In this document: in pieces, positions 1 through 13,378 of the stretch
Position numbering within the stretch: the stretch's first letter is position 1
Layout of the letters: every line of letters begins with the position of its first letter
DNA from: an uncultured Phycisphaerales bacterium
GTDB taxonomy: Bacteria > Planctomycetota > Phycisphaerae > Tepidisphaerales > Tepidisphaeraceae
Length of the DNA: 64,000 nt
Direction of reading: 5' to 3'
Assembly (NCBI GenBank): GCA_963758525.1
Contig: CAVWVQ010000003.1
Coordinates: 192,001 to 256,000, forward strand
Notes under the pieces: model-generated
Database searches by the model: none
The model's input: the letters and a program-made list of their open reading frames with translations, nothing else
What the model was told of the DNA's origin: nothing
Position numbers and translations under genes: made by a program

Positions 1-810
1 CATCGCCGCACAGACACCTACAGGACGCAGGATCCTGAGAATCTGACTCGCGGTATATGTTCTGCAGGCGAGGGCCAGCAAAGCTCCAATCGCCAGTTCA
101 TCGGTTCTGCACGGCGTGAGCAAGCTCGCGGTGTCATGGTGGCTGTGCGGAAGCAACAGATAACGGCTCGTCAGGGCAGTGAGAACCAGCACAAGGGAGA
201 TACCGACCAAGCCTCTTTTGGATGAAAGATAGATAACGAGCGGCCAGAGGAGGTAAAAGTGTTCCTCCACTGCCAATGACCAGAAGTGCGTGACCATGAA
301 CGGATAGGGATTTAGAAAACCCCACCCGAACCGGTACACGGCGAGATTGGTTCCGTAGAGCCACAACCACGCCTGGTGCGGCCGGGCCGCTGCAAGCCCC
401 GCGCGAGCGACCGGCGTGAATGGGAGCACGAGGAATACAACCGAAAGCACGCCATAGTAGATGGGACAGATGCGGAGGGTGCGCCGGACGTAGAAATTTC
501 GGAAAAAGTGCGGGGATCCCTTTGAATCGAGAAGGATACCGGTGATGAGGAAGCCTGAGAGCACGAAGAACAGATCGACTCCCATCCAGCCATTGCCCGT
601 GAGTTTGATGTAGATGCGGCCCACTGACGTGAGGGGAAGCGCACTGAGATACCAGTAGCTGAAGTGCATCGTCATGACCGCCAGGACCGCGATCCCCCGA
701 AGCCCGTCCAATGCGGGCATATAGCGGCCAAATGCCGGAGGGTCATCCTGCGGCGGAATTCGAGATCGAGCCCCGGTGATTGGGGAGACTGCAGATGGAA
801 TTCCAACCAT
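1..810 (-). CDS. Acyltransferase-3 (OafA-like) membrane acyltransferase, runs off the left edge of the window
   Basis: Not in the ORF track because no stop lies in the window. Hand translation from ATG at 810 is open to position 1: YMPALDGLRGIAVLAV..GWMGVDLFFVLSGFLITGIL..FRNFYVRRTLRI..THFWSLAVEEHFYLLWP, all classic Acyl_transf_3 motifs. Confidence 0.92.
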   Translation of the reverse strand, partial: MVGIPSAVSPITGARSRIPPQDDPPAFGRYMPALDGLRGIAVLAVMTMHFSYWYLSALPLTSVGRIYIKLTGNGWMGVDLFFVLSGFLITGILLDSKGSPHFFRNFYVRRTLRICPIYYGVLSVVFLVLPFTPVARAGLAAARPHQAWLWLYGTNLAVYRFGWGFLNPYPFMVTHFWSLAVEEHFYLLWPLVIYLSSKRGLVGISLVLVLTALTSRYLLLPHSHHDTASLLTPCRTDELAIGALLALACRTYTASQILRILRPVGVCAAM

Positions 811-816
811 AGACAA

Positions 817-1991
817 TTACTCCCAACGCCCGGCCGCCCGATTGCTGTTCTTTCGCGCAGGAGTATCGGCCGCCGCGGAGCTGGCGATTGAAGCGCGATT
901 TCGGCCGATCCATAATTGGCGAAACGGATAGATCCACTGCCGCAGGTTTGTTGCCAGCACTCCGCGAACCGAATGAGCCGATTCCGCTGGAAACGTCTCG
1001 TCATCGATTCCGGTTGCCGGATAGACGTCATACTCCCTGCACTGGGTGCCAAACAGACAGTCCCAGACGGTCAGAATCGCGCCATAGTTTTGGTCGAAAT
1101 GCTCCGGGTGCAGGGAGTGGTGAATGCGGTGTGACTGCGGCGTAACAACAAAGTAACAGAGCGGTCCGAAATTGCTCCTGATGTTTGCATGGCAAAGCCG
1201 GTTGTGCCAGGTCAGGATCAATATCCACCAGATGACCGCGGGCTCCTGGAGATTGAGCATCAGCATGGGAAGCACGAGCACGGTGTAGCGGAGGAATTGC
1301 TCCACAATGTGATTTCGGTAAGACGAAAACTGATTCAATTCTCGCTGCGCGTGATGGACGGCATGAAACGGCCAGAGAAAGGAGAGGCGATGGTGAAACC
1401 AGTGCTGCAACCACCGCGCAAAATCCATCGCCACGGCGCCGATCACCAGCCGCAGCGCCACGGGAAGCGAATGAGCCGTCCGCAGAGTGAGAAAGGCCAG
1501 ATGCCGGGAGTAGAAGTTGTAGAGCATCGCGCCGTACCACATGGCGATCACCAGCCAGACCGCGGCTTCGATCACCACCCACAGCGCATCGTGAACCAGG
1601 CCGGTGCTCAGCGTCCGTTGAGAAGGAATTGCAGGAAAGCGGCGTTCCAGCATGAAGATGCCAAGCATGCCGAAGGGGTAGAGCACCATCGATAGCAGTG
1701 ACCAGCCGGAGATCGCTTTCTTGAGGTGCGGCAGCAGGCCGTGCAGAAGCCACCTTGCGCATCGGCGCTGACAAAAGCGAATGGGTAGAGAAGCCTTATG
1801 ATCAGGCAGGCGATCGCCAGCAAGAGGAAGCAGCCTGCGAAAACGATGCGAACGCGTGATTCGGTTGCGGATTCGGAATCCGGATTTGCGCGGACGTAGC
1901 TCGGCCGCCGGGAGCGGGGAAATTGGCGAGACAGAGATGTCGGGCGATTATCCGTCTCCGCGAGCATGCTCACCGGCCTGTCAGCATGCAC
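817..1991 (-). CDS. Sterol desaturase/fatty acid hydroxylase family protein; N-terminus probably frameshifted near 1700-1760
   Basis: ORF 817..1689 has His boxes QHWFHH, FHAVHH, HANI, HRIHH and NYG..LTVWD.LFGT. Upstream ORF 1608..1991 supplies a hydrophobic N-terminus in another frame. Confidence 0.85.
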
Positions 1992-2274: not shown

Positions 2275-2721
2275 ATGATGAACGACACGACCAGCCGATT
2301 CAGGATTAACGAAAAGCTCGTGACCTCGAAGATGATCGACGGGGAGGCGATTATCATCAACCTGGCCAATGGGATGTACTACAGCCTGGACAAAACCGGC
2401 GGCGTGGTATGGGTGCTGATTGGCGCGGGTCAGAGCCTGGGCGAAATCGCGAACGTGGTGTCTTCACGCTTTTCCGCACCACCGGAGCAGGTTCGCGAGG
2501 ATCTGGCCCTGCTGGTGAACGATCTGGTGAAGCAAAATCTGGTGCTGCCCGCCGAGGGCGACGCGCCGATCGTGCAGGTCAAGCTCGATCCGCCCACGGG
2601 CGATGCTTACGTGCAACCCGTGCTCAATAGTTACGACGACATGGGGGATGTGCTCGCGCTGGATCCGCCGCTGCCGCAGGTGGAAATCGAAAACGAATCC
2701 TGGGAGACCAGCGTCAAATGA
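2275..2721 (+). CDS. PqqD-family/RiPP recognition element (RRE) protein with a C-terminal YxxPxL-containing extension
   Basis: IDGEAIIINLANGMYYSLDKTGGVVW..GQSLGEIA..F..PEQVREDLALLVNDLVKQNLV is a PqqD/RRE pattern. Tail: DAYVQPVLNSYDDMGDVLALDPPLPQ... Confidence 0.88.
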   Translation: MMNDTTSRFRINEKLVTSKMIDGEAIIINLANGMYYSLDKTGGVVWVLIGAGQSLGEIANVVSSRFSAPPEQVREDLALLVNDLVKQNLVLPAEGDAPIVQVKLDPPTGDAYVQPVLNSYDDMGDVLALDPPLPQVEIENESWETSVK

Positions 2722-2736: not shown

Positions 2737-4496
2737 ATGGAGCAAGCCGATCCGCTCATTTCGTGTCTGTGCGTCACGCGTGCGCGCGTGGCCTTGCTCC
2801 GTCGCGCCGTTCAATGTTTTTTTGAGCAAACCCATCGCCATCGCGAGCTGCTGATTCTCTTCGATTCCGATGATGCCGCCACGCGCCAGTACGTTGGCTC
2901 GCTCGACGACGATCGCATCCGCGGCATCGAGGTGCCGGACTCTCCGCGACAATCGCTGGGATCGCTGCGAAATCTTGCCGTCGGCGAGGCGCGCGGGCAA
3001 TACGTCTGCCAGTGGGACGACGACGACTGGTATCACCCTGATCGACTGACGGTGCAATTATCGGCGTTGCGCGGCAGCGGCCGCTGTGCATGCGTCCTTT
3101 CCCGCTGGACCTGCGTCGACACTGAGGCGCATCGCGCCTACATCTCCCCCCACCGCGCCTGGGAGGGAAGCATTCTGGCCGAGCGCGATCGAATGGCGGC
3201 CTACCCGGATCTGGCCCGCGGCGAGGACACGGTGGCAATCGAGACGCTGTCCCGTCAGCAACAACTGCACATGCTCGACCGGCCGGAACTTTACGTTTAC
3301 ACATTCCACGGCCGCAACACCTGGGATCGCAGCCATTGGGCTTATCTGCTTGGAAAATCGACGGTCGTTCCGTGGGATGAGTCGCAGGACATCCTGCGCC
3401 GCACGGGCTCCGATGCGATGGGTCCCAACGCGCTTCCGATGCGGGAGCACCTTGCACCCACGCGTTATTGGTTCGACCAGGCTTGCGAGCGCGGCCGCGA
3501 GCCGGCGCTGACCACATACTTCCGCTTCGCTGACGCGCCGGTCCGGATGCGTGTCGCGGGTAACGCGCTCAATGCTCACCTGAAGCGGAGCTACGAGCAG
3601 TTGCTGGCAGACGATGTCGACCCCGACGGCCCTTTCGCTTTGACGATAGACGCGTGGGACCGGGCCACGACCGGCTTGGGATGTCCCGGCGTCCCGATGC
3701 CGCCGGACCAGACGCAACTCCTCGATGAAGGATTGCTCAACTCATACGACGACGGACGCATCATCCGCTACGAACGAGGGCATTACGTCAACGCAATCGA
3801 CCGGATGGCGCCAAGATTTTCACCTGGCGGGCCGACGGAAACGATCAGGCGCTCTATGAACGGGCCAAGCCATTCCCCAACATGCTGGAGATCTGGTATC
3901 GCGATCAGGGCGTCCAGCAGTTGCATGCGGGCCTGGTGGCGCGCGACGGCAAGGGGGTGCTTTTTATCGGACAGAGCGGATCGGGAAAATCGACCTGCAC
4001 GCTCGCTTGCGCGCTGGACGGCTTCGACTACCTTGGCGACGACCACAACGGGCTGCAGATGACTCAGGACGGGCGTTGCATCGGACACAGCTACTACAAC
4101 GCCGCGCGAATCGGGCCCGGGCACCTGCGGCATTTCCCGGAACTGCGTCCGCACGAAGTGCCTCCGCACAACCAGTACGATCAGAAATCGCTGGTCTGGA
4201 TGACGCAGGTGACCGGCCGCGTCGCAAAAAAGTGCGACATCGTCGCGGTCGTCATGCCGCGGATCGTCGTCGGAGGCACGACGCGATTTCGCCGGGCATC
4301 CAAGGTGCAGACGCTGATTGCGCTCGCTCCCAGCACGCTTAAAGTGCCGATGGGCGCGGGGCTGGGCGGCTTCATGAACCTCACCGACTTCATCCCGAAG
4401 ATCCCCTGCTTTCTGCTCGAATGCGGCCCCGACGTGCGTCAGATTCCCGATTGCGTGCGGCGGATGATTGATGCGGCCGCGGGGAGCGGAGGGTAA
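2737..4496 (+). CDS. GT2 glycosyltransferase fused to an HPr-kinase-like P-loop kinase (frameshift near 3810)
   Basis: N-terminus LISCLCVT..SLGSLRNLAV..QWDDDDWYHPDRL (GT2). Open in frame into a linker/kinase N-domain. Shifting frame at ~3810 gives KIFTWRADG..YERAKPF..LHAGLVARDGKGVLFIGQSGSGKST..YLGDD (ORF 3882..4496). Confidence 0.8.
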
Positions 4497-5629
4497 TGCG
4501 CATCCTCTATTGGACAGAGTCATTCTGGCCGAGGATCGGCGGAAGTGAAGTGGCGGCGGCGGCGCTGATCGGCGAAATGCGGTGCCGGGGCCATCAATTC
4601 GAGGTGGTGACACGGCAGTGGTCGCCGGATCAACCGGCAACCGATCGATGGAACGGTATTGCCGTGCATCGCGTGCCATTCGATGACGGCACGTTTGACC
4701 GGCTCAACCTGGAAGAGATCCTCCCGCTGCGTCAGCGCGTGGCTGCGATCAAGCGACGATTCAAACCTGATCTGGTTCACGTCGGCCTCACAGGACCGAG
4801 CCTGTTCCTGCATAATTTCACCGCGGGGCAGTTTCCCGCGCCCACGCTCATCACCCTGCATGTCGTGCCTGTGGAAACCGAATACGGCCGGAACAAGCCG
4901 GTACGCGAGGCGCTTCGCGCCGCAGCCTGGCTGGCGCCGGTTTCAAACGCCGTGGCAGCGCGGATACAGCATCGGTTACCGGCCCTGGCGGAACGCTGCT
5001 CGGTGATCCATAACGGATTGCCCGAGCCGACGGCGGCGCTCCTGCCCGTCCCCTTTTCACCGCCAAGACTGCTCTGTGTTGGTCGCGTCACCGAACAGAA
5101 GGGCTTCGACACCGCCGTCGCGGCGATGCCTTTCGTACGCGAGATGTTTCCAGACGCGGAGTTGTTGATTGCAGGGGATGGCGATGCGACTGAATCGCTC
5201 CGGGAATTAGCGTGCACGTTGAATGTCTCCGATTGCGTGAAACAACTGGGGTGGACGCCGTCAGACCAGGTGCCGGGGCTGATCGACGCAGCGACGCTGG
5301 TGTTGATGCCTTCGCGATGGGAGCCGTTCGGATTGGTGGCGCTGCAGGCAGGTCAGCGAGGCCGCGCGTGCGTGGCGGCGGATGTCGATGGTTTGCCCGA
5401 GATCGTGCAGCACGAACGGACGGGGCTGCTGCTTCCCCCGGATCAACCGCGACAATGGGCCGACGCCATCTGCTTACTGCTCACCGACCGGCAACGCATC
5501 ATGATGATGGGCCGCGAGGCGCGGCGGTTTGTTTCGCGGCAATTCAGCCTTGCGAAGCACGTGGACGCGTACGAATCGCTCTATCAGCGCCTGGCCGCCC
5601 GCGCCTGCAGGGAAGAGGCGATGGCATGA
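4496..5629 (+). CDS. Glycosyltransferase family 4 (GT-B)
   Basis: MRILYWTESFWPRIGGSE; VGRVTEQKG; PSRWEPFGLVALQA; DGLPEIVQHERTGLL. The start overlaps the upstream stop (TAATG). Confidence 0.93.
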   Translation: MRILYWTESFWPRIGGSEVAAAALIGEMRCRGHQFEVVTRQWSPDQPATDRWNGIAVHRVPFDDGTFDRLNLEEILPLRQRVAAIKRRFKPDLVHVGLTGPSLFLHNFTAGQFPAPTLITLHVVPVETEYGRNKPVREALRAAAWLAPVSNAVAARIQHRLPALAERCSVIHNGLPEPTAALLPVPFSPPRLLCVGRVTEQKGFDTAVAAMPFVREMFPDAELLIAGDGDATESLRELACTLNVSDCVKQLGWTPSDQVPGLIDAATLVLMPSRWEPFGLVALQAGQRGRACVAADVDGLPEIVQHERTGLLLPPDQPRQWADAICLLLTDRQRIMMMGREARRFVSRQFSLAKHVDAYESLYQRLAARACREEAMA

Positions 5630-6336
5630 GCAGGCCAACCGTCAGTTGCATTCTCGCCGTTTACAACGGCCGCCAATACTTGGCCGAGGCGCTGGACTCG
5701 ATCCGGCGTCAGTCGCGGCCGGTGGATGAGATCATTGTCGTGGACGACGGATCGACCGATGACACGGTCGAGATCGCCGAGAGATTCGGTGCGCCTCTCC
5801 GCTGCATCCGCCAGCAGAACGCCGGCCAGTCCGCGGCCCGCAATCATGGTGTCCGCGTCTCGCGCGGCGACATGCTGTCATTTCTCGACTGCGACGACCT
5901 CATTCATCCCAAAAAGATCGAGCGCCAACTGCGGCGCTTTGATGAGGCTCCGCAACTGGCGCTGATCGACGCCTACGCGCAGAACTTCTGGAGCCCAGAA
6001 GTTCCCCAGGAGCAGCGGCAATTGACCGGCTGGCAAGCCATGACCCATTCCGACCAACCGTGGCCGGAGTTCATCGCAACCTGGCTCTTCCGGCGCGAAG
6101 CATGGCAGTGCGCGGGACAGTTCGACGAGAACCGCCGATTTGCCGAGGACAGCGACTGGCATGACCGCGTGCGCTTCAGCGGCATGCCGATGGAGACGAT
6201 GCGGGCGGTGCTCGCCCGGCGCCGGCTGCATCAGACGAATCTCACTCGCAGCAACTACGTCGACCACATCGACGGCCTGCAACGTTTTTACAAGGAGAAA
6301 ATCGACCGCCTGCGCGCTCAGGAACGCGCCGGTTGA
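5626..6336 (+). CDS. Glycosyltransferase family 2 (paralog 1)
   Basis: Start MSRPTVSCILAVYNG at an ATGA overlap with the GT4 stop; VVDDGSTD, ARN, FLDCDD, FWSPE, RRRLHQTN. Confidence 0.92.
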   Translation: MSRPTVSCILAVYNGRQYLAEALDSIRRQSRPVDEIIVVDDGSTDDTVEIAERFGAPLRCIRQQNAGQSAARNHGVRVSRGDMLSFLDCDDLIHPKKIERQLRRFDEAPQLALIDAYAQNFWSPEVPQEQRQLTGWQAMTHSDQPWPEFIATWLFRREAWQCAGQFDENRRFAEDSDWHDRVRFSGMPMETMRAVLARRRLHQTNLTRSNYVDHIDGLQRFYKEKIDRLRAQERAG

Positions 6337-6344
6337 TTTACGTC

Positions 6345-7034
6345 ATGACGTCACCCGGCATCAGCTTGATCATCCCGGCATACAACGCGAGCCGCTATCT
6401 GCGCGAAGCGATCGACTCCGCGCTGAGCCAGACGATCAAGCCGAGGCAGTTGATCGTTGTGGACGACGGGTCGACCGACGACACGCTGCAGATCGCCCGA
6501 AGTTACGGCGATATCCTCACGGCCATCACACAGCCCAATGGCGAAGGCTCGGCAGCGCGCAATCGCGGCCTGACGGAAGCGGACCAGCCATTGATCGCGT
6601 TCCTGGACGCGGATGATCGATATGCACCCAATAAACTCGAGCGGCAACTGCAGTCCCTCTCTGACCACCCGGGCGCGATGCTCTGCATCTGCCGAGCCTG
6701 CGACTTCTGGTCGCCAGACCTTCCCGCTGCCGTTCGCAAGGCCTCAAACTTCGAGCCGCAGTTCAGGCCGGGCCAGCCGGGCACCTGGCTGGCGCGACGA
6801 GAAGTCTTCGAGTGCGCCGGGAGGTTCAACACCTCGCCAGCATTTAATTTCAGCGAAGGATCGGAGCTGTATTCACGCATCGAGAACGCCAGACTCGCAG
6901 TGGTGCGAATTGACGATGTGCTGGTCGAACGACGGCTGCATTCCTCGAACAAGACCGCGAATTCCAAAGCGCATCTTGATGGAATCATGTCGTTGATGAA
7001 GCGGCGGCTGGAATTGCGGAGGGGATCGGCATGA
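6345..7034 (+). CDS. Glycosyltransferase family 2 (paralog 2)
   Basis: MTSPGISLIIPAYNA..VVDDGSTD..ARNRG..FLDADD..FWSPD..RRLHSSN. The start could be 6333. Confidence 0.92.
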   Translation: MTSPGISLIIPAYNASRYLREAIDSALSQTIKPRQLIVVDDGSTDDTLQIARSYGDILTAITQPNGEGSAARNRGLTEADQPLIAFLDADDRYAPNKLERQLQSLSDHPGAMLCICRACDFWSPDLPAAVRKASNFEPQFRPGQPGTWLARREVFECAGRFNTSPAFNFSEGSELYSRIENARLAVVRIDDVLVERRLHSSNKTANSKAHLDGIMSLMKRRLELRRGSA

Positions 7035-7186
7035 GCCAGTACGAAGTGCGGGATCCAGCGGCTCACGGTGGCGAACGGCCAATCTTGCTCCCTCCCGCGG
7101 AGAGGGGACCGGAGGGAAATCGCCCGCCGGTAAATTGTGCCCCTGGGACAGCGAATGAACTACCTGCGCGGAGTAGGCGGGTTTGC

Positions 7187-7879
7187 ATGATGACCACACC
7201 AGGCATCAGCCTGATTATCCCCGTTTTCAATGCGAGTCTTTATCTGCGCGAAGCCATCGACTCGGTGTTGAGCCAGACCCGCAAGGCGCAACAGATCATC
7301 GTCGTGGACGACGGATCGACCGACGACAGCCGCGAGATTGCCCTGGGGTACGGCAGCGCGATCACGCTCATCTCGCAGGCGAACGGCGGCACTGCCGCGG
7401 CGCGCAATCGCGGCCTGGAAGAGGCAAACCAGCCGTTGATCGGGTTCCTCGACAACGACGACCGATTCACGCCCCAAAAGCTCGAGCGACAACTGCACGC
7501 GCTTCTGGAAAATGACGGCGCGATGCTATGCGTCTGCCGGGTGCGTGCCTTCTGGTCGCCCGAGGTGCCCGGGAGCGCCCGAAGAGCCGTTGATCTAACC
7601 CCGCAATTTCGTCCGGGGCAGCCCGGCGCGTGGCTGGCGCGGCGCGAACTGTTCGAGCGCGTTGGCGGCTTCAGCGATGAGCCGCAGTGTTATTACATCG
7701 AAGGCTCGGAATTGTTCGTGCGTATCGAGCACGCGGGATGCGCGGTGGCGCGAATCGATGACGCGCTGCTCGAGAGACGGCTCAGCCTGTCGAACAAAAC
7801 AGCCAACTCCAAAGCGCACCTCGACGGGATTATGACCCTTATGCAGCGGCGGCTGCATTTACGGCGGTGTTCCACATGA
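7187..7879 (+). CDS. Glycosyltransferase family 2 (paralog 3, tandem duplicate of paralog 2)
   Basis: MMTTPGISLIIPVFNA..VVDDGSTD..FLDNDD..FWSPE..NKTANSKAHLDGIM. The ORF is open from 7031, but homology to paralog 2 starts at ~7187. Confidence 0.9.
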   Translation: MMTTPGISLIIPVFNASLYLREAIDSVLSQTRKAQQIIVVDDGSTDDSREIALGYGSAITLISQANGGTAAARNRGLEEANQPLIGFLDNDDRFTPQKLERQLHALLENDGAMLCVCRVRAFWSPEVPGSARRAVDLTPQFRPGQPGAWLARRELFERVGGFSDEPQCYYIEGSELFVRIEHAGCAVARIDDALLERRLSLSNKTANSKAHLDGIMTLMQRRLHLRRCST

Positions 7880-8592
7880 GCCAGTACGATCTCCCACTCG
7901 TGAGTTGCATCATCGCCGTGTACAACGGCCAAGCGTATTTGCGCGAAGCGATCGAATCACTGCTCGCCCAGGAATATCCGCTGTTGGAGATCGTGGTGGT
8001 CGATGACGGCTCGACCGACGGCACGGCCGGCGTAATCAGCGCGTATCGCGGTCGCGTCCACGCGATCAGCCAGACCAATTGCGGCGTATCCGTCGCCCGC
8101 AATCGCGGGGTGGAGATGTCATCGGGCCGACTGCTTTGCTTTTTGGACGCCGACGATCTGCTGGATCCGCGGAAGATTGCGGCGCAGGTGGCCGCGTTCG
8201 GCACCGATGAACGCCTCGATTTTTGCGACTGCCATACTTCGTACTTCTGGAGTCCGGAGATTTCGGCCGAGGCGCTCGAGCGGGATCCTCGCCATGCCCA
8301 GCCATTCTGGCACACGCCCCTGCCGCGTCACATCAGCACCTGGTTGTTTCGTTGCGAGCTATGGGATCGCGTCGGCACGTTTGCTGCCAGACTCCGCTAC
8401 GCCGAGGACGTGGACTGGTTCAGCCGGGCTCGCGATCTTCCCATGCGCAGCCTGACACTCCCCGATGTGCTGACACATCGGCGACTCCATACGGGCAACG
8501 TGACCGCGCAATGCCGCGACCGGCAGGTCGACGACCTCGCGAGCACACTCCGGGCGCACATGGTCCGCGCGCGAACAAGGAACGCGGGCTGA
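7876..8592 (+). CDS. Glycosyltransferase family 2 (paralog 4)
   Basis: MSQYDLPLVSCIIAVYNG..VVDDGSTD..FLDADD..FWSPE..HRRLHTGN; ATGA overlap with the previous stop. Confidence 0.92.
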   Translation: MSQYDLPLVSCIIAVYNGQAYLREAIESLLAQEYPLLEIVVVDDGSTDGTAGVISAYRGRVHAISQTNCGVSVARNRGVEMSSGRLLCFLDADDLLDPRKIAAQVAAFGTDERLDFCDCHTSYFWSPEISAEALERDPRHAQPFWHTPLPRHISTWLFRCELWDRVGTFAARLRYAEDVDWFSRARDLPMRSLTLPDVLTHRRLHTGNVTAQCRDRQVDDLASTLRAHMVRARTRNAG

Positions 8593-10104
8593 TGCAACAC
8601 CAGTTGCCCATCTCCGCCTGCGATCCGCCGCTGGCCGATACCCTTCGGCTGATGATGCCATGCGCAACCACCACGCTGCTGCTGCAAGCGGCACTGCTTC
8701 AAAGCGGCGCGGCCGGCGAAGCGTGGTTGAAATGGAGGCAAACCATCGCAGATCCCAAGGCATTTCTCGCATCCGATCGCGTCGGCATCAAACGTCACTT
8801 GCCTTTGTTGTACCGCAACCTGACCGCGCACCAGGTGGACGTCGGCCGCGACCTTGAACCGTACTTCCGCGCGGCCCGCGCTCGTGAGGAGCTTCGCAGC
8901 GCGCGGTATCGCCGATTCCTCGGCGAAGCACTCGGCGCGCTGCAACGCAGCGGCGTTGAGTTTGTCGTGGGCAAGGGCGTGACCGTCGGCGAAACGATCC
9001 ACGCAGATCCGGTTGTGCGGCACAGCCACGACATCGATCTGCTGGTGCGACCTGGGGACCTGGCCACCGCGGCCGAGGCGTTGCAGAAAGCGCGATTCCC
9101 CTCGTCTGCGACACACAGCCCGCGCGGCGAGCCGCGATTCGTCCACGAATCGGGCTTGCCCGTGGAACTGCACCATCGGTTGTACCGCACGCCCTTCTAT
9201 GACGGCGACCTGACGGGCGTCTGGGACCGGGCACGCGCCGGCGAAGCCCTCGGCATGCCAGTGCGGCTGATCAGCGACGTCGACCTGCTCGTGCAAGCGC
9301 CGGTGCATGCGTCGGTCGTGCCGCAACGCTGCGGACTCAGTTGGATTGTCGATGTCGCAAGTCTTCTGCAACGACGCGATGCCGAAGGAACAGCGATTGA
9401 CTGGGCGTCGGTCATCTGGATCGCGGGCGAAGCGGGCGCGACGCTGCCGCTGTACGTGACGTATCATTATCTTGCGACCACATTCAAGGCCCCGATTCCC
9501 CGGCAGGTCATCGAAGAACTGGGCCGCTCGGCGCAGGGCAGGACCGCTGCAGCATCTGGCGGCCTTGGACGGCCTGCGCTGCGAAGCCCGATATCGGCGG
9601 ATCAAAGTGCTGCTCGACGCCAGCGGATGGCGCTCGCGCGCGGCGATCGCCAGAGCGATGCTGCTGCCGCCGCCGGCATATCTCAGGGCAACGCATCCGG
9701 GGATACGCCGGTTACCGCTGGCGCGAATTTATATCACACGACCGCTGCAGTTTGCCGGCAGGCAATTCAACCGATTCAAGTTCCGATTGCGGCAACGATG
9801 GCTGGGTCTGACGCAAACGCCGTTGGCACCTGTTGCGATAGCAGCAGCCGTCGCGTGCAACCGCGAATCATGGAAGCAGCTTCTTGCCTCCTCCCCTGGT
9901 ACTCCGGGGGAGGATCGAGGTGGGGGCCCTGTAAGTGCAACCGTGCCGCTATTACGCCCGGCCCCCACCCCAACCCTCCCCCGGAGTACCAGGGGAGGGG
10001 GCAAGAGCGCGTCAACTCAGGAGACCGGTGACATTCGAGCCGGTTCTGCGCGTAGTCCGGCGGCTTCGGCTCCACCCTCAATTGCACGGGAGTCCCTCGT
10101 ATGA
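8592..10104 (+). CDS. Nucleotidyltransferase (NTP_transf_5-like); frameshift near 9530, true 3' end uncertain
   Basis: Start at a TGATG overlap; VVGKG..DPVVRHSHDIDLLV, VELHHRL, WIVDVA. Continues in ORF 9472..10104 (LQHLAALDGLR..LLPPPAYL), whose tail runs through a REP element. Confidence 0.8.
9882..10006. repeat. REP-like palindromic element, family A (CCCTCyCCyGGTACTCCGGGrGAGG inverted pair)
   Basis: ctcccctggtactccgggggagg ... cctcccccggagtaccaggggag. Related copies at 22647-22768, 34827-34875, 36465-36506 and 46271-46305, and a half copy at ~7084-7117. Confidence 0.8.
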
Positions 10105-12103
10105 TCGGACGCATTCGCTCCAGCCGCGCCCGCTACCGCGAGTACTGCCGCCAAATGCGGCAGACGCGATACGACCCGGCGGCGCGGCGAATACTGCCGA
10201 AGGACGTTGCCGCGCACGATGCGCAGACCGGCCAAAGTCGTCACCGGCGAAGCACGCGCGAATTGATCGGCGCCTTCTGGCGTCAACTGCGCGCGCATCG
10301 CCTCGTGCTGTGGAATGTCCTTCTTACCTCGGGCATCGCGACCCTGGTGGGTTTGCTGCCGCCTTATGGGATGAAGGTCATCTTCGACAATGTCTTCACG
10401 GGCAAGCCACTGCCGAAGGCGATCGCATCATTGCGCTGGATGCCCTCCACGCCGTCGGGACTGCTCTGGACCGTGGTGATGGCGATGTTCGCGCTGTCGG
10501 TCCTCTCGGTGGTGACCAGGACGATCAGCAATTCCATCGCCTATCGGCTGCAACAGCACCTGATTCTGCGGGCGCAGCGGCGCCTCCTGCATCACACGCT
10601 GCGAATGCCGTTGCATCGGCTGCGTCAGATCACGTCCGGCGGTATGTCTTTCATCGTGCGTCACGATGCCAATGCGGTGGGCGATCTGGTGGTCTTCCTC
10701 GTGTACGAACCGTGGAAAGCGATCATTCAATTGCTGGGCTGCTTCGCGGTCCTCGCCTGGGTGGACTGGCGGCTGCTTGCCGGGTCGCTGGCGCTGCTGC
10801 CGCTCCTGTACATGGCACAGCGGACGCGCGTCGGGCGGATTCGCGACATGGCGGAGGATGCGTTGTCCCACGACCAGCAGCTTGACGGTCAAACCGCCGA
10901 ACTCTTCGGCGGCATCCGCGTCATCCGCGGCTTCGGCCGTGAATCCACCGTCGCGGCGCGGATGCTCCGCCGGCACCACTTCGTCTCGCGCCTGCAGTTG
11001 CTGTCCTGGTGGCTGTTCCGGAGCGTGGATGTCGGCTGGATGATTCTGATTCCGCTGGCGTCGGCCGTCCTCCTGGCGGTGGGCGGAGCACGCGTGCTTC
11101 ACGATGCGGCGGAAGTCGCCGCCGGGCGCCGGCGCCGGCGCATGCCTTTTCCGTCGGCAGCCTGGTCATGTTCATGGCGTATCTGGCATGGCTGCTCAAT
11201 CCGCTGGCGGCGCTGGCGCGCACCAGCACACACCTGCAGAACGCCCTGGCGGGTATGAACCGTGCATTAGACGTGTTGGAAGAGCCCGTCGAGGCCGCGA
11301 CGCAAGGCGCGATTTGCAATCTGCGGCCGTCGGGGGATGGAGCCGTCTCGCTGAGCGATGTGTGGTTCACCTATCCCGGCAGCGACGAACCCGTGCTGCG
11401 CGGCATCGATCTCGACGTGCCCGCCGGCCAGACTGTTGCGCTGGTCGGCCCCAGCGGCGCCGGAAAGTCCACGCTCACCAATCTCATCGCTCGCTTCTAC
11501 GACCCCGACCAGGGAACCGTCCGACTGGACGGCGCCGATGTGCGTCTGATCGACGTGAGGTTCTGCCGCAAAATGATGGCGCTCGTCGATCAGGACATCT
11601 TCCTCTTCGACGGCACGATCGGCGAGAATATCGCGTGCGGCAACCGCCGCGCGTCGGCCCGCGAGATCGTCGAGGCGGCCAAGGGCGCTCACGCCCACGA
11701 GTTCATCACGGAATTGCCCGAGGGTTACAACACTTCCGTGGGCGAGCGCGGCCTGCGCTTCTCCGGCGGACAACGCCAGCGCATCGCGATCGCGCGAGCA
11801 ATGCTCGCCGATCCAAAGATTCTCATTCTCGACGAGGCCACCAGCCATCTCGATCCGGAAAACGAGCGTCTCATCCAACAATCCCTTGCGTCGCTCATGG
11901 CCGGCCGCACATGCTTCGTCATCGCCCATCGTCTCAGCACGATCCGTCACGCCGACCAGATCGTGGTCCTCGAGGAGGGCCGAATCACCGAGCGCGGCCG
12001 GCACGAAGAATTGATGCTCAGCAGCAGCCGATACCGGCGGATGATTCAGCTGCAACTGGGCGTCGAGGAGTCGGCGTCGCAGCCGGAAGAAGCCGTGGTT
12101 TAG
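10101..12103 (+). CDS. ABC exporter, TMD+NBD (MsbA-like), frameshift near 11130; no C39 peptidase domain
   Basis: TMD in ORF 10101..11258; NBD in ORF 11009..12103 with GPSGAGKST, FSGGQRQRIAIARA, ILILDEATS, VIAHRLST. Confidence 0.9.
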
Positions 12104-12138: not shown

Positions 12139-12534
12139 TCAACGCGAGACCTCAGGGTCCTCCGCCAATCCCTGCTCAACTAACATCCTCTTGAATTCCT
12201 TCGGCGTGCGAATGGAATCCATCGCACCCTTCCGAATTCGTTCGAGCAGATCGCCTGATACAGGTTCAAACATTTTCCGCAAACCCGCTTTCACCATCGC
12301 ATCGAGTTCGGCGTTCGACGCCTTCGCATTGCCACGGGAATAGGTGATACACGTGCGATTCGTAACCGTCGAGTGGGCTCCCGGCAGAAGCACGCAGGTG
12401 TGGTCCTCGCGTGCGTCCCAACTTGTCATGCCCACGAAAAGCACCTTATCGGGGTGCTGGTCTGGGTTGGAGATGATCACTTTCGCGTGTCGGTCCGCGG
12501 CTTTGACAAGCCGGAACACATCCCCTTGTTTCAC
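12139..12534 (-). CDS. Hypothetical protein, putative toxin partner of the Panacea antitoxin (weak PemK/MazF-like look)
   Basis: The start overlaps the Panacea gene's stop; 131 aa, N-terminal MKQGDVF..HAKVIISNP..VLFVGMTS. Confidence 0.55.
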   Translation of the reverse strand: MKQGDVFRLVKAADRHAKVIISNPDQHPDKVLFVGMTSWDAREDHTCVLLPGAHSTVTNRTCITYSRGNAKASNAELDAMVKAGLRKMFEPVSGDLLERIRKGAMDSIRTPKEFKRMLVEQGLAEDPEVSR

Positions 12535-13097
12535 GCGTCCCTCACGGCGCCCAGAGCATCTTCAAAAGCCGCCTCCGCCTGCTCGTCGGCAATAAGACGT
12601 TCTTCGTAATCCGTCATTCCGAGAGCCTCCAGCACATCATGGAGTGGTATGTCCTTCTTGCTTCCCTCCGGTGGCTGATTCTTGCTCCATTCGGGGAACT
12701 TGTGAGTCTCGTCGGCAATATCGTAATCGGTCATGCCCCGTCGCATTGCACTCACGGCTCGCAATTTCCTGATCTCGTACTCGGAGAGGGTGTCATCACC
12801 CGGTTGGCCGACCAACATATGACTGCGTTCGCCATCCTGAGCGATGTATTTGTCCCAGATGGCATTTCCGGGCTGCGATTCACGTCTGATCAGTTTATAG
12901 GTTTTTGACAAAACGGGGCCGTGATCCATCGCTACGACATCATCGCCGGTGATCGGCTGAAGAGTTTCCGCAATGCTCTCGCGATCAGCGATGTAGAGCA
13001 GCTTCAGCAACCGCAATCTGGTCATTTTCCCACCCTCCTGTTGCAAGAGGGTGGATGCCGCCTGTACGGCCTTGAGCGTGTTGAATGAAATGACCAT
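12531..13097 (-). CDS. Panacea-domain (DUF4065/SocA-like) antitoxin
   Basis: KAVQAASTLL..MTRLRLLKLLYIADRES..PITGD..AMDHGPVLS..ETHKFPEW. ORF open to 13154; likely ATG at 13097. Confidence 0.85.
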   Translation of the reverse strand: MVISFNTLKAVQAASTLLQQEGGKMTRLRLLKLLYIADRESIAETLQPITGDDVVAMDHGPVLSKTYKLIRRESQPGNAIWDKYIAQDGERSHMLVGQPGDDTLSEYEIRKLRAVSAMRRGMTDYDIADETHKFPEWSKNQPPEGSKKDIPLHDVLEALGMTDYEERLIADEQAEAAFEDALGAVRDA

Positions 13098-13378
13098 CGC
13101 CGAACCACCTGCTGCGTTATGCGTTAATTCGATATTGTATGTCGTGCGTCCCATTCGACAAACTCGGCGGCTTGGCCGAGCAGGGCTTCTGCGACATAGA
13201 CATTCATATCGAAGAATATCTTCATCGATCGCGAGGCCTTGCTACCGTCTGATCAATGCTTCGTGGTGGATTCCCGCATGGCGCGCGATCTCCCAAGCCG
13301 GACTCGATCTCCGTGATGATGTTGCCAACCGTCGCCTGGCTCATAGGTTACAAATGATAGACAAGACTTCGGCGAATC

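Follow-up and report, generated by a model that had tools for sequence, protein, structure and literature searches.

RREs are taught as adaptors that serve separate precursor peptides. The window analysed here (the whole stretch of 64,000 nucleotides from an uncultured Phycisphaerales bacterium) holds an RRE protein, P0001, with a leader-like motif in its own chain, encoded by the first gene of an operon (Table 1). An earlier note, made from the letters alone, had proposed that RRE and precursor are fused in this protein and that it is a self-docked substrate or carrier, or an autoinhibited RRE. Is the tail a genuine leader, does it dock in cis, and what could it serve?

Table 1 Features of the RRE-tail gene and of the cassette downstream of it (window coordinates, residues numbered in P0001)
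Feature	Coordinates	Strand	Basis or remark
RRE-tail gene P0001, 148 aa	2275..2721	+	ORF translation; stop at 2719-2721
Lasso-type RRE domain, residues about 8-92	2296..2550	+	PF05402, AF2 model, Foldseek
Variable linker, residues 93-111, mostly 21-24 aa across homologs	2551..2607	+	
Docking half of tail, Tyr112-Tyr120, YxxPxLxx[YF], predicted strand 118-120	2608..2634	+	Tyr112 codon begins at base 2608
Invariant distal half of tail, Asp122-Pro134, DMxDxLALDPPxP	2638..2676	+	
Asp130 codon (Tyr+18)	2662-2664	+	
Variable, low-confidence C-terminal end, holding the Ser/Thr residues of P0001	2677..2718	+	
GT2 fused to HprK-like kinase	2737..4496	+	Split by one frameshift near 3807-3819
GT4 glycosyltransferase	4496..5629	+	
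Four short GT2 glycosyltransferases	5626..8592	+	
PF14907 (NTP_transf_5) nucleotidyltransferase	8592..10031	+	R-x-x-x-D-x-D motif
MsbA-like ABC exporter	10101..12103	+	Two overlapping frames

The gene encodes a lasso-type RRE that carries a leader-like tail. Residues 24–90 match PF05402 at 47.3 bits (cut-off 23.4), and the AlphaFold2 (AF2) model has the three-strand, three-helix RRE fold, for which Foldseek returned TbiB1 and TfuB1 as top structural matches (TbiB1, E 2e-5, target TM-score 0.89). Among solved structures, its closest relatives are TbiB1, PbaB1, LppB and TfuB1, which are RREs of lasso and LPP systems. P0001 scores below the cut-offs of the lasso B1 NCBIfam families (NF033536, 44.1 versus 80; NF033530, 33.4 versus 70) and of the named PqqD families, and it has no match to TIGR04353 (HPr-rel-A system RRE), the cut-off of which is passed only by the triple-RRE fusion P0188 (38.3 versus 35). 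In lasso numbering (Tyr = −17), the consensus Gly at −8 and Thr at −2 are replaced by Asp121 and Leu127, just as first described; position −8 is variable in homologs, with Gly in 2%. A contig from another sample spans 2629–2856 with 3 letters different, and both differences listed lie outside the tail. A promoter and terminator scan gave no signal above chance. Elsewhere in the source genome, a 573-aa frame contains another PqqD-like match, below threshold (G000:C3:3096785-3096979, minus strand; locus L080).

To measure conservation, 347 proteins were pooled, 320 distinct sequences of 110–210 aa kept, and 222 homologs retained at <70% identity. The consensus tail is YxxPxLxx[YF]xDMxDxLALDPPxP, with ten key positions conserved at 92–98%, values that are inflated because most homologs were gathered with tail-containing profiles. 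In the docking half, the residues are kept at 95% (Y112), 98% (P115), 92% (L117) and 81% (Y120, with Phe in 14%); further on they are kept at 96% (D122), 94% (M123), 71% (D125, Glu 18%), 85% (L127, Phe 10%), 97% (A128), 93% (L129) and 98% for each of D130, P131, P132 and P134. The YxxPxL motif in cis, intact at Tyr112, is thus near-invariant across the 222 homologs, and the homolog alignment that the earlier note had called for bears out the longer YxxPxLxxYxDMxDxLxLDP tail. The linker (93–111) and the end after residue 135 vary; of the Pro-rich linker described at the outset, a mildly Pro-rich and variable one is left.

A tail-only profile scored the P0001 tail at 50.3 bits (E 1.7e-12). The match is not due to chance, since the next-best site in the same genome scored just 10.8 bits. 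An RRE-only search (residues 5–93), which reached relatives at 51% identity or more only, yielded 49 matches among 50 candidates; the tail was present in 45 of the 49, and the remaining 4 end inside the RRE helices. Searched by itself against PDB sequences, the tail (34 aa) gave no match at E up to 10. The 78 loci cover 14 named phyla (72 loci with rank), and the cassette is patchy, as a full-length match was found in 3 of the 61 genomes around the source genome. Two GT4–RRE fusions and one C5-epimerase–RRE fusion are possible read-through artefacts and were left out of the evidence, and no conclusion draws on locus L084, which comes from an unpublished genome. In a sister subfamily the tail ends in DP[IV]H[DE]V..GWP, and YxxPxL..D[ML]xDL..DP is common to both. 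A cultured host of this DPIH..GWP subfamily is Crinalium epipsammum PCC 9333, the plasmid pCRI9333.04 of which (L091:5896-15357) holds genes for an RRE-tail protein, two nucleotidyltransferases, an HPr kinase, an FkbM methyltransferase and two GT-A enzymes; the tail there has Phe in place of Tyr, and the RRE is apparently without an Asp76 equivalent.

We next consider docking of the tail in its own RRE. In the AF2 model, built from a 58-row alignment, pLDDT is 97 over residues 111–120, and DSSP assigns a strand at 118–120; a lone three-residue strand requires a partner, and we therefore take it to be paired with the RRE. Contacts between tail and cleft were inferred from DSSP, pLDDT and co-variation. 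Over 121–130, which includes a short helix, pLDDT falls to 64, and further on it is <55, so the distal half of the tail is predicted to be free of the RRE. In solved complexes, the corresponding leader segment pairs with the edge strand of the RRE (PMC13381572). LppB holds its leader with N33, D70, F74, M78 and L83, and D70 hydrogen-bonds the leader Tyr (PMC13381572). Going by the alignment and by the spacing of the helices, the pocket residues Leu38, Asp39, Asp76, Leu80, Leu84 and Leu89 of P0001 correspond to L32, N33, D70, F74, M78 and L83 of LppB. The pockets for Tyr, Pro and Leu are retained across the 222 homologs, with Asp76 in 93% and Leu80, Leu84 and Leu89 conserved.

Asp76 also co-varies with the tail Tyr: it occurs in 205 of the 213 homologs with a Tyr tail, versus 2 of the 8 with Phe or Trp. 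On a FastTree of 234 proteins, computed with the columns for Asp76 and tail position 112 left out, six independent lineages (19 proteins) have a non-Tyr tail: Asp76 is gone in four, partly gone in one (the Trp-tail lineage, lost in 5 of 13 proteins and kept in 8) and kept in one (Phe). Against co-variation, Asp76 was also lost in 8 Tyr-keeping lineages (10 proteins). The co-variation rests on this tree count; the Fisher p of 2e-7, for which 205/6 and not 205/8 was used, ignores kinship. In two-domain tandem proteins the docking half follows each RRE, with DMxDxLxLDP present once per chain, and a tandem-protein model has an extra strand at both RREs; in triple-RRE proteins the additional tail copies are more degenerate. 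One complete distal motif each was also observed in tandem two- and three-RRE proteins and RRE3–kinase fusions (P0188, P0257, P0266, P0150, P0125, P0128, P0120-P0123, P0129, P0165 and P0252).

We conclude that YxxPxLxxY very probably docks in cis, as an extra strand predicted to lie against β3/α3. The AlphaFold check for strand addition proposed at the outset came out in favour, with a confident extra strand at 118–120; the intact pockets and the co-variation of Asp76 with the tail Tyr are two further lines of support. A two-chain domain swap may be an alternative to docking in cis. If the fused leader merely stabilised the fold, as a purely structural relic, a docking half beside each RRE of the tandem proteins would fit; this reading is nevertheless highly unlikely, as the model leaves the distal half unpacked from the RRE, yet that half is 93–98% invariant at seven positions and is kept once per chain.

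The origin of the tail is suggested by a locus of the usual unfused kind from a genome of the same family (L087, 1459–3261). It encodes a tail-less RRE of 104 aa together with a B2 protease and two precursors that are free. The free leaders YKTPKLATHGDVAKLT and YVTPQLTTHGSVAQLT align position by position with the tail YVQPVLNSYDDMGDVL. By this alignment the tail contains a complete 16-residue leader, of which Asp122 and Met123 are part, and a core would begin near ALDPP. The simplest origin, and therefore the likely one, is that an RRE gene fused with a precursor gene next to it; the residue-for-residue match to the L087 leaders gives substance to the proposed RRE–precursor fusion. Both genes would have come from an LPP/Bsf-like cluster, and the protease would then have been lost. 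L087 also includes what may be the beginning of an HprK-like kinase gene.

The absence of a leader protease, with which the earlier note had found the altered leader positions to fit, is supported: B2 is missing from the source genome (90.9% complete) and from 77 of the 78 loci. In the one locus with B2, L037, it belongs to another RRE, which is tail-less and is accompanied by a kinase and two free precursors of its own, and B2 likewise adjoins tail-less RREs in L086, L087 and L088. This unfused L037 cluster (5713–8286; FxxPxL precursors, kinase, tail-less RRE, B2 and PF14907) lies directly behind the cassette of the tailed RRE, and its available part holds no cyclase. Among the 237 representative ORFs scanned (of 278 unassigned), there was no match to the S24/S26 (SpI-like) peptidase families and no macrolactam cyclase, the single Asn-synthase match bearing a glutamine amidotransferase domain. 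Leu at −2 alone does not prove that the leader stays uncut, but the I(−2)L variant of BsfA is barely cut (PMC10368454).

We also searched for precursors that might act in trans. A small-ORF scan of 80 loci, which included Phe leaders and recovered the L037 precursors as a positive control, gave 40 pattern matches, of which only those two were convincing; no free precursor recurs in the loci, and the tail profile found no free copy of the tail in the source genome. These results bear on the autoinhibited RRE of the earlier note. Under such a reading the cleft would stay occupied by the tail until a precursor from a separate gene took its place. The intact cleft residues could indeed take a leader in trans. 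In its simple form, however, autoinhibition is very improbable, because no free precursor was found other than the L037 pair, which serves a separate tail-less RRE with B2, and because the most invariant residues lie beyond the binding cleft, where blocking leaves their invariance unexplained.

As to the cassette, across all 78 loci we found a kinase in 65, PF14907 in 65, GT2 in 71, GT4 in 53 and the ABC exporter in 27; for the 40 loci flanked by 7 kb or more on each side, the counts are 37, 38, 40, 30 and 16. A kinase or GT2–kinase fusion directly follows 42 of 81 RRE genes. The kinase retains its His, P-loop and DD motifs; intact kinases score 26–47 bits against the kinase cut-off of 200 for the HPr-rel-A system (TIGR04352/TIGR04353). 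In P0188, P0257 and P0266 the kinase is fused to three RREs (natural RRE3–kinase fusions). Most cassettes have two PF14907 paralogs in two clades, both with DxD; the window has one copy. The GT2–kinase fusion is intact (582 aa) in L002 and L023, at 50–57% identity, and the ABC exporter is intact in the same-genus relative L092, the window frames breaking at about 11009–11258. The window frameshifts in both genes may be assembly errors or recent decay. Pfam scans of the 237 ORFs in and beside the cassettes returned neighbour families for glycan tailoring and polysaccharide export, such as ABC2_membrane, Polysacc_synt, sulfotransferases and GT10.

Several other arrangements were seen. L017 (2721–11194) has three RRE-tail copies in one operon, two of them followed by GT2 and GT4 and one by a radical SAM gene, with a decayed fourth tail near 7750–7830 and two kinases 17–27 kb downstream of the last copy; an apparent free-standing tail in this locus is interrupted by a stop at the Tyr position and seems to be a duplicate in decay. 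Upstream in the window, 1–1689 (minus strand) holds divergent fatty-acid-hydroxylase-like and acyltransferase-3 genes, of which the acyltransferase occurs in 2 of 78 loci and the hydroxylase in none. On the same strand, 12139–13154 carries a gene pair that we take to resemble a Panacea/DUF4065-type antitoxin and its partner, and a frame ending below 46807 has a C-terminal low-complexity NGTNG/NGSNG repeat tail.

Which residue could these enzymes act on? The Ser, Thr, Tyr and Asp residues of the tail had all been named as acceptors. The first three fall away, none being conserved: Ser or Thr occurs at Tyr+17 to Tyr+20 in none of 221 homologs, from Tyr+15 onward Ser is missing in 98 of 222 and both Ser and Thr are missing in 40 of 222, and Tyr120 is Phe in 14%. 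Asp122 and Asp130 are left as the invariant candidates, with Asp at Tyr+18 in 218 of 221 homologs. It is accordingly quite improbable that the protein is an ordinary fused precursor in which Ser/Thr of the variable C-terminal end would receive phosphate and sugar, the product for export being the whole protein or the tail. The 40 homologs without Ser/Thr include that of L002, which ends in ALDPPLPQVALD and whose GT2–kinase architecture equals that of the window; only 20 of 222 end in Ser, with no conserved position, and no conserved protease would release the product. Such a precursor would be in keeping with the Ser or Thr found after position 128 in 182 of 222 homologs and with the C-terminal Ser modified by paeninodin-type kinases (PMC6993621, PMC10368454).

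Characterised kinases of this kind phosphorylate Ser (PMC13381572). In LPP, Ser3 of LppA, which the LPP kinase phosphorylates, lies at Tyr+18, and LppK accepts neither Thr nor Tyr (PMC13381572). From this shared Tyr+18 offset, Asp130 would occupy the phospho-Ser3 position of LPP precursors, give or take one residue: a β-bulge in LppA (PMC13381572) loosens the register, and Ser3 of BsfA is at Tyr+19 (PMC10368454), where the RRE-tail family has Pro. A complex prediction for the kinase and RRE-tail protein of L026 scored 0.52 versus 0.15 for the best of 3 controls and located no interface; runs shared 79% or more of their contacts, and partner pLDDT was 80 or higher. Of 157 solved complexes only 18 attained the mark at a score of 0.60 or below, as did the only 2 of 215 mismatches that passed. 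This prediction hints weakly that the RRE-tail protein contacts the HprK-like kinase. We know of no precedent for an HprK-like kinase acting on Asp.

Our tentative preference, held at somewhat under even chances, is that the protein is an uncut, reusable carrier that presents Asp130 to the HprK-like kinase and the sugar enzymes. The leader half would dock in the RRE's own cleft and the distal motif would enter the kinase, which would phosphorylate Asp130; PF14907 enzymes and the GT2s and GT4 would then extend a phosphate-linked sugar chain on phospho-Asp130, a step for which PsmN-dependent hexosylation on phospho-Ser in pseudomycoidin is the model (PMC6993621). The labile acyl-phosphate link would permit release of the glycan without a protease, and the product would be exported. 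A carrier of this kind would account for the invariance, for the one motif per chain and its internal place when fused to a kinase, for the lack of a protease and for glycan-tailoring genes that vary. Against it, a kinase within 10 kb is lacking in 3 of the 40 well-flanked loci, only 16 of the 40 have the ABC exporter, and the kinase gene of the window is frameshifted as assembled. One of five checked genomes with kinase-less loci has no full-length family kinase anywhere (genome completeness unstated).

The same distal motif could act without covalent modification. A permanently docked leader would keep the RRE folded and 'loaded', and the distal motif would bind and activate the kinase or the nucleotidyltransferases or, in a variant, gate the enzymes as a pseudo-substrate, while their real substrate would be another molecule, for instance a sugar or glycan, or else a protein that has no leader. 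We regard such an activator or scaffold as possible, if on the doubtful side. No conserved Ser acceptor exists, the three RRE3–kinase fusions carry the full motif internally, LppB is insoluble without leader (PMC13381572), BsfK requires its RRE and leader (PMC10368454), and the neighbours include glycan-tailoring and polysaccharide export families, all as a scaffold would have it; the cassette, however, has no other conserved candidate substrate gene, and in LPP and Bsf the residue at the corresponding register is a substrate (PMC13381572, PMC10368454). Returning to the carrier, the complete course of events, in which a RiPP precursor was domesticated for glycan synthesis, with phosphate placed on Asp, a phospho-glycan built there, release without proteolysis and the carrier reused, is unlikely as a whole.

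Other systems share traits with this arrangement. Borosins are enzyme–precursor fusions in which the substrate is attached to its own machinery, and pearlin/LysW-type peptides are reusable carriers that work through a carboxylate; in both the enzymes are unrelated and there is no RRE with a leader in cis. In the lasso B1–leader complexes (TbiB1 5V1V/5V1U, TfuB1 6JX3, LppB 9X8Z and PbaB1 9X90), fold and pockets are the same, and binding is by strand addition, as is also predicted for the RRE-tail protein; the leader there is a separate product, whereas here one chain holds both RRE and leader, joined by a linker of about 22 residues.

The LPP system of Bacillota (LppA/B/K/S/D/N; PMC13381572) resembles the RRE-tail system in its lasso-type RRE with a Tyr-binding Asp, YxxP leader, HprK-like kinase, NTP transferase, MsbA-like exporter and glycosyltransferase-rich loci without a macrolactam cyclase. 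Unlike LPP, the RRE-tail family has leader and core fused at the RRE C terminus, no SpI-like peptidase, an invariant Asp instead of Ser at the phospho-acceptor position, an invariant rather than variable core, usually two NTase paralogs, and hosts in 14 other phyla. The Bsf lasso cluster of Bradymonas (PMC10368454) has an RRE-assisted kinase acting near core position 3, and in pseudomycoidin/paeninodin clusters the Psm kinase and NTP transferase give a hexose on phosphate (PMC6993621); in contrast to Bsf and Psm, the RRE-tail family is without B2, cyclase, separate precursor, Thr/Ile at −2 and conserved Ser. The RRE-tail system works like LPP/Bsf tailoring machinery, yet it falls outside both lasso and LPP clusters, since it has no protease, cyclase, free precursor or Ser3.

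Genome mining drops clusters without a detected precursor gene, and the RRE-tail family shows where a missing precursor went, in a cassette found across at least 14 phyla. Literature searches over main texts, few of them from subscription journals, returned no paper in which an RRE carries its leader in cis, and main-text passages of PMC13381572, PMC12710340, PMC6993621, PMC10368454, PMC7470986 and PMC10036551 mention none; supplements of PMC12710340, PMC7470986 and PMC13381572 could list the family. As 21% of PF05402 proteins are oversize and unannotated (PMC12710340), the family may explain part of them. For PF14907 nucleotidyltransferases, the chemistry of which is still unsettled even in pseudomycoidin and LPP, the RRE-tail protein offers a defined candidate substrate in a single chain, and the cultured host of the sister subfamily, with its Crinalium plasmid, makes the question directly testable. 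If Asp130 is the acceptor, the family would represent new kinase chemistry and a new type of carrier.
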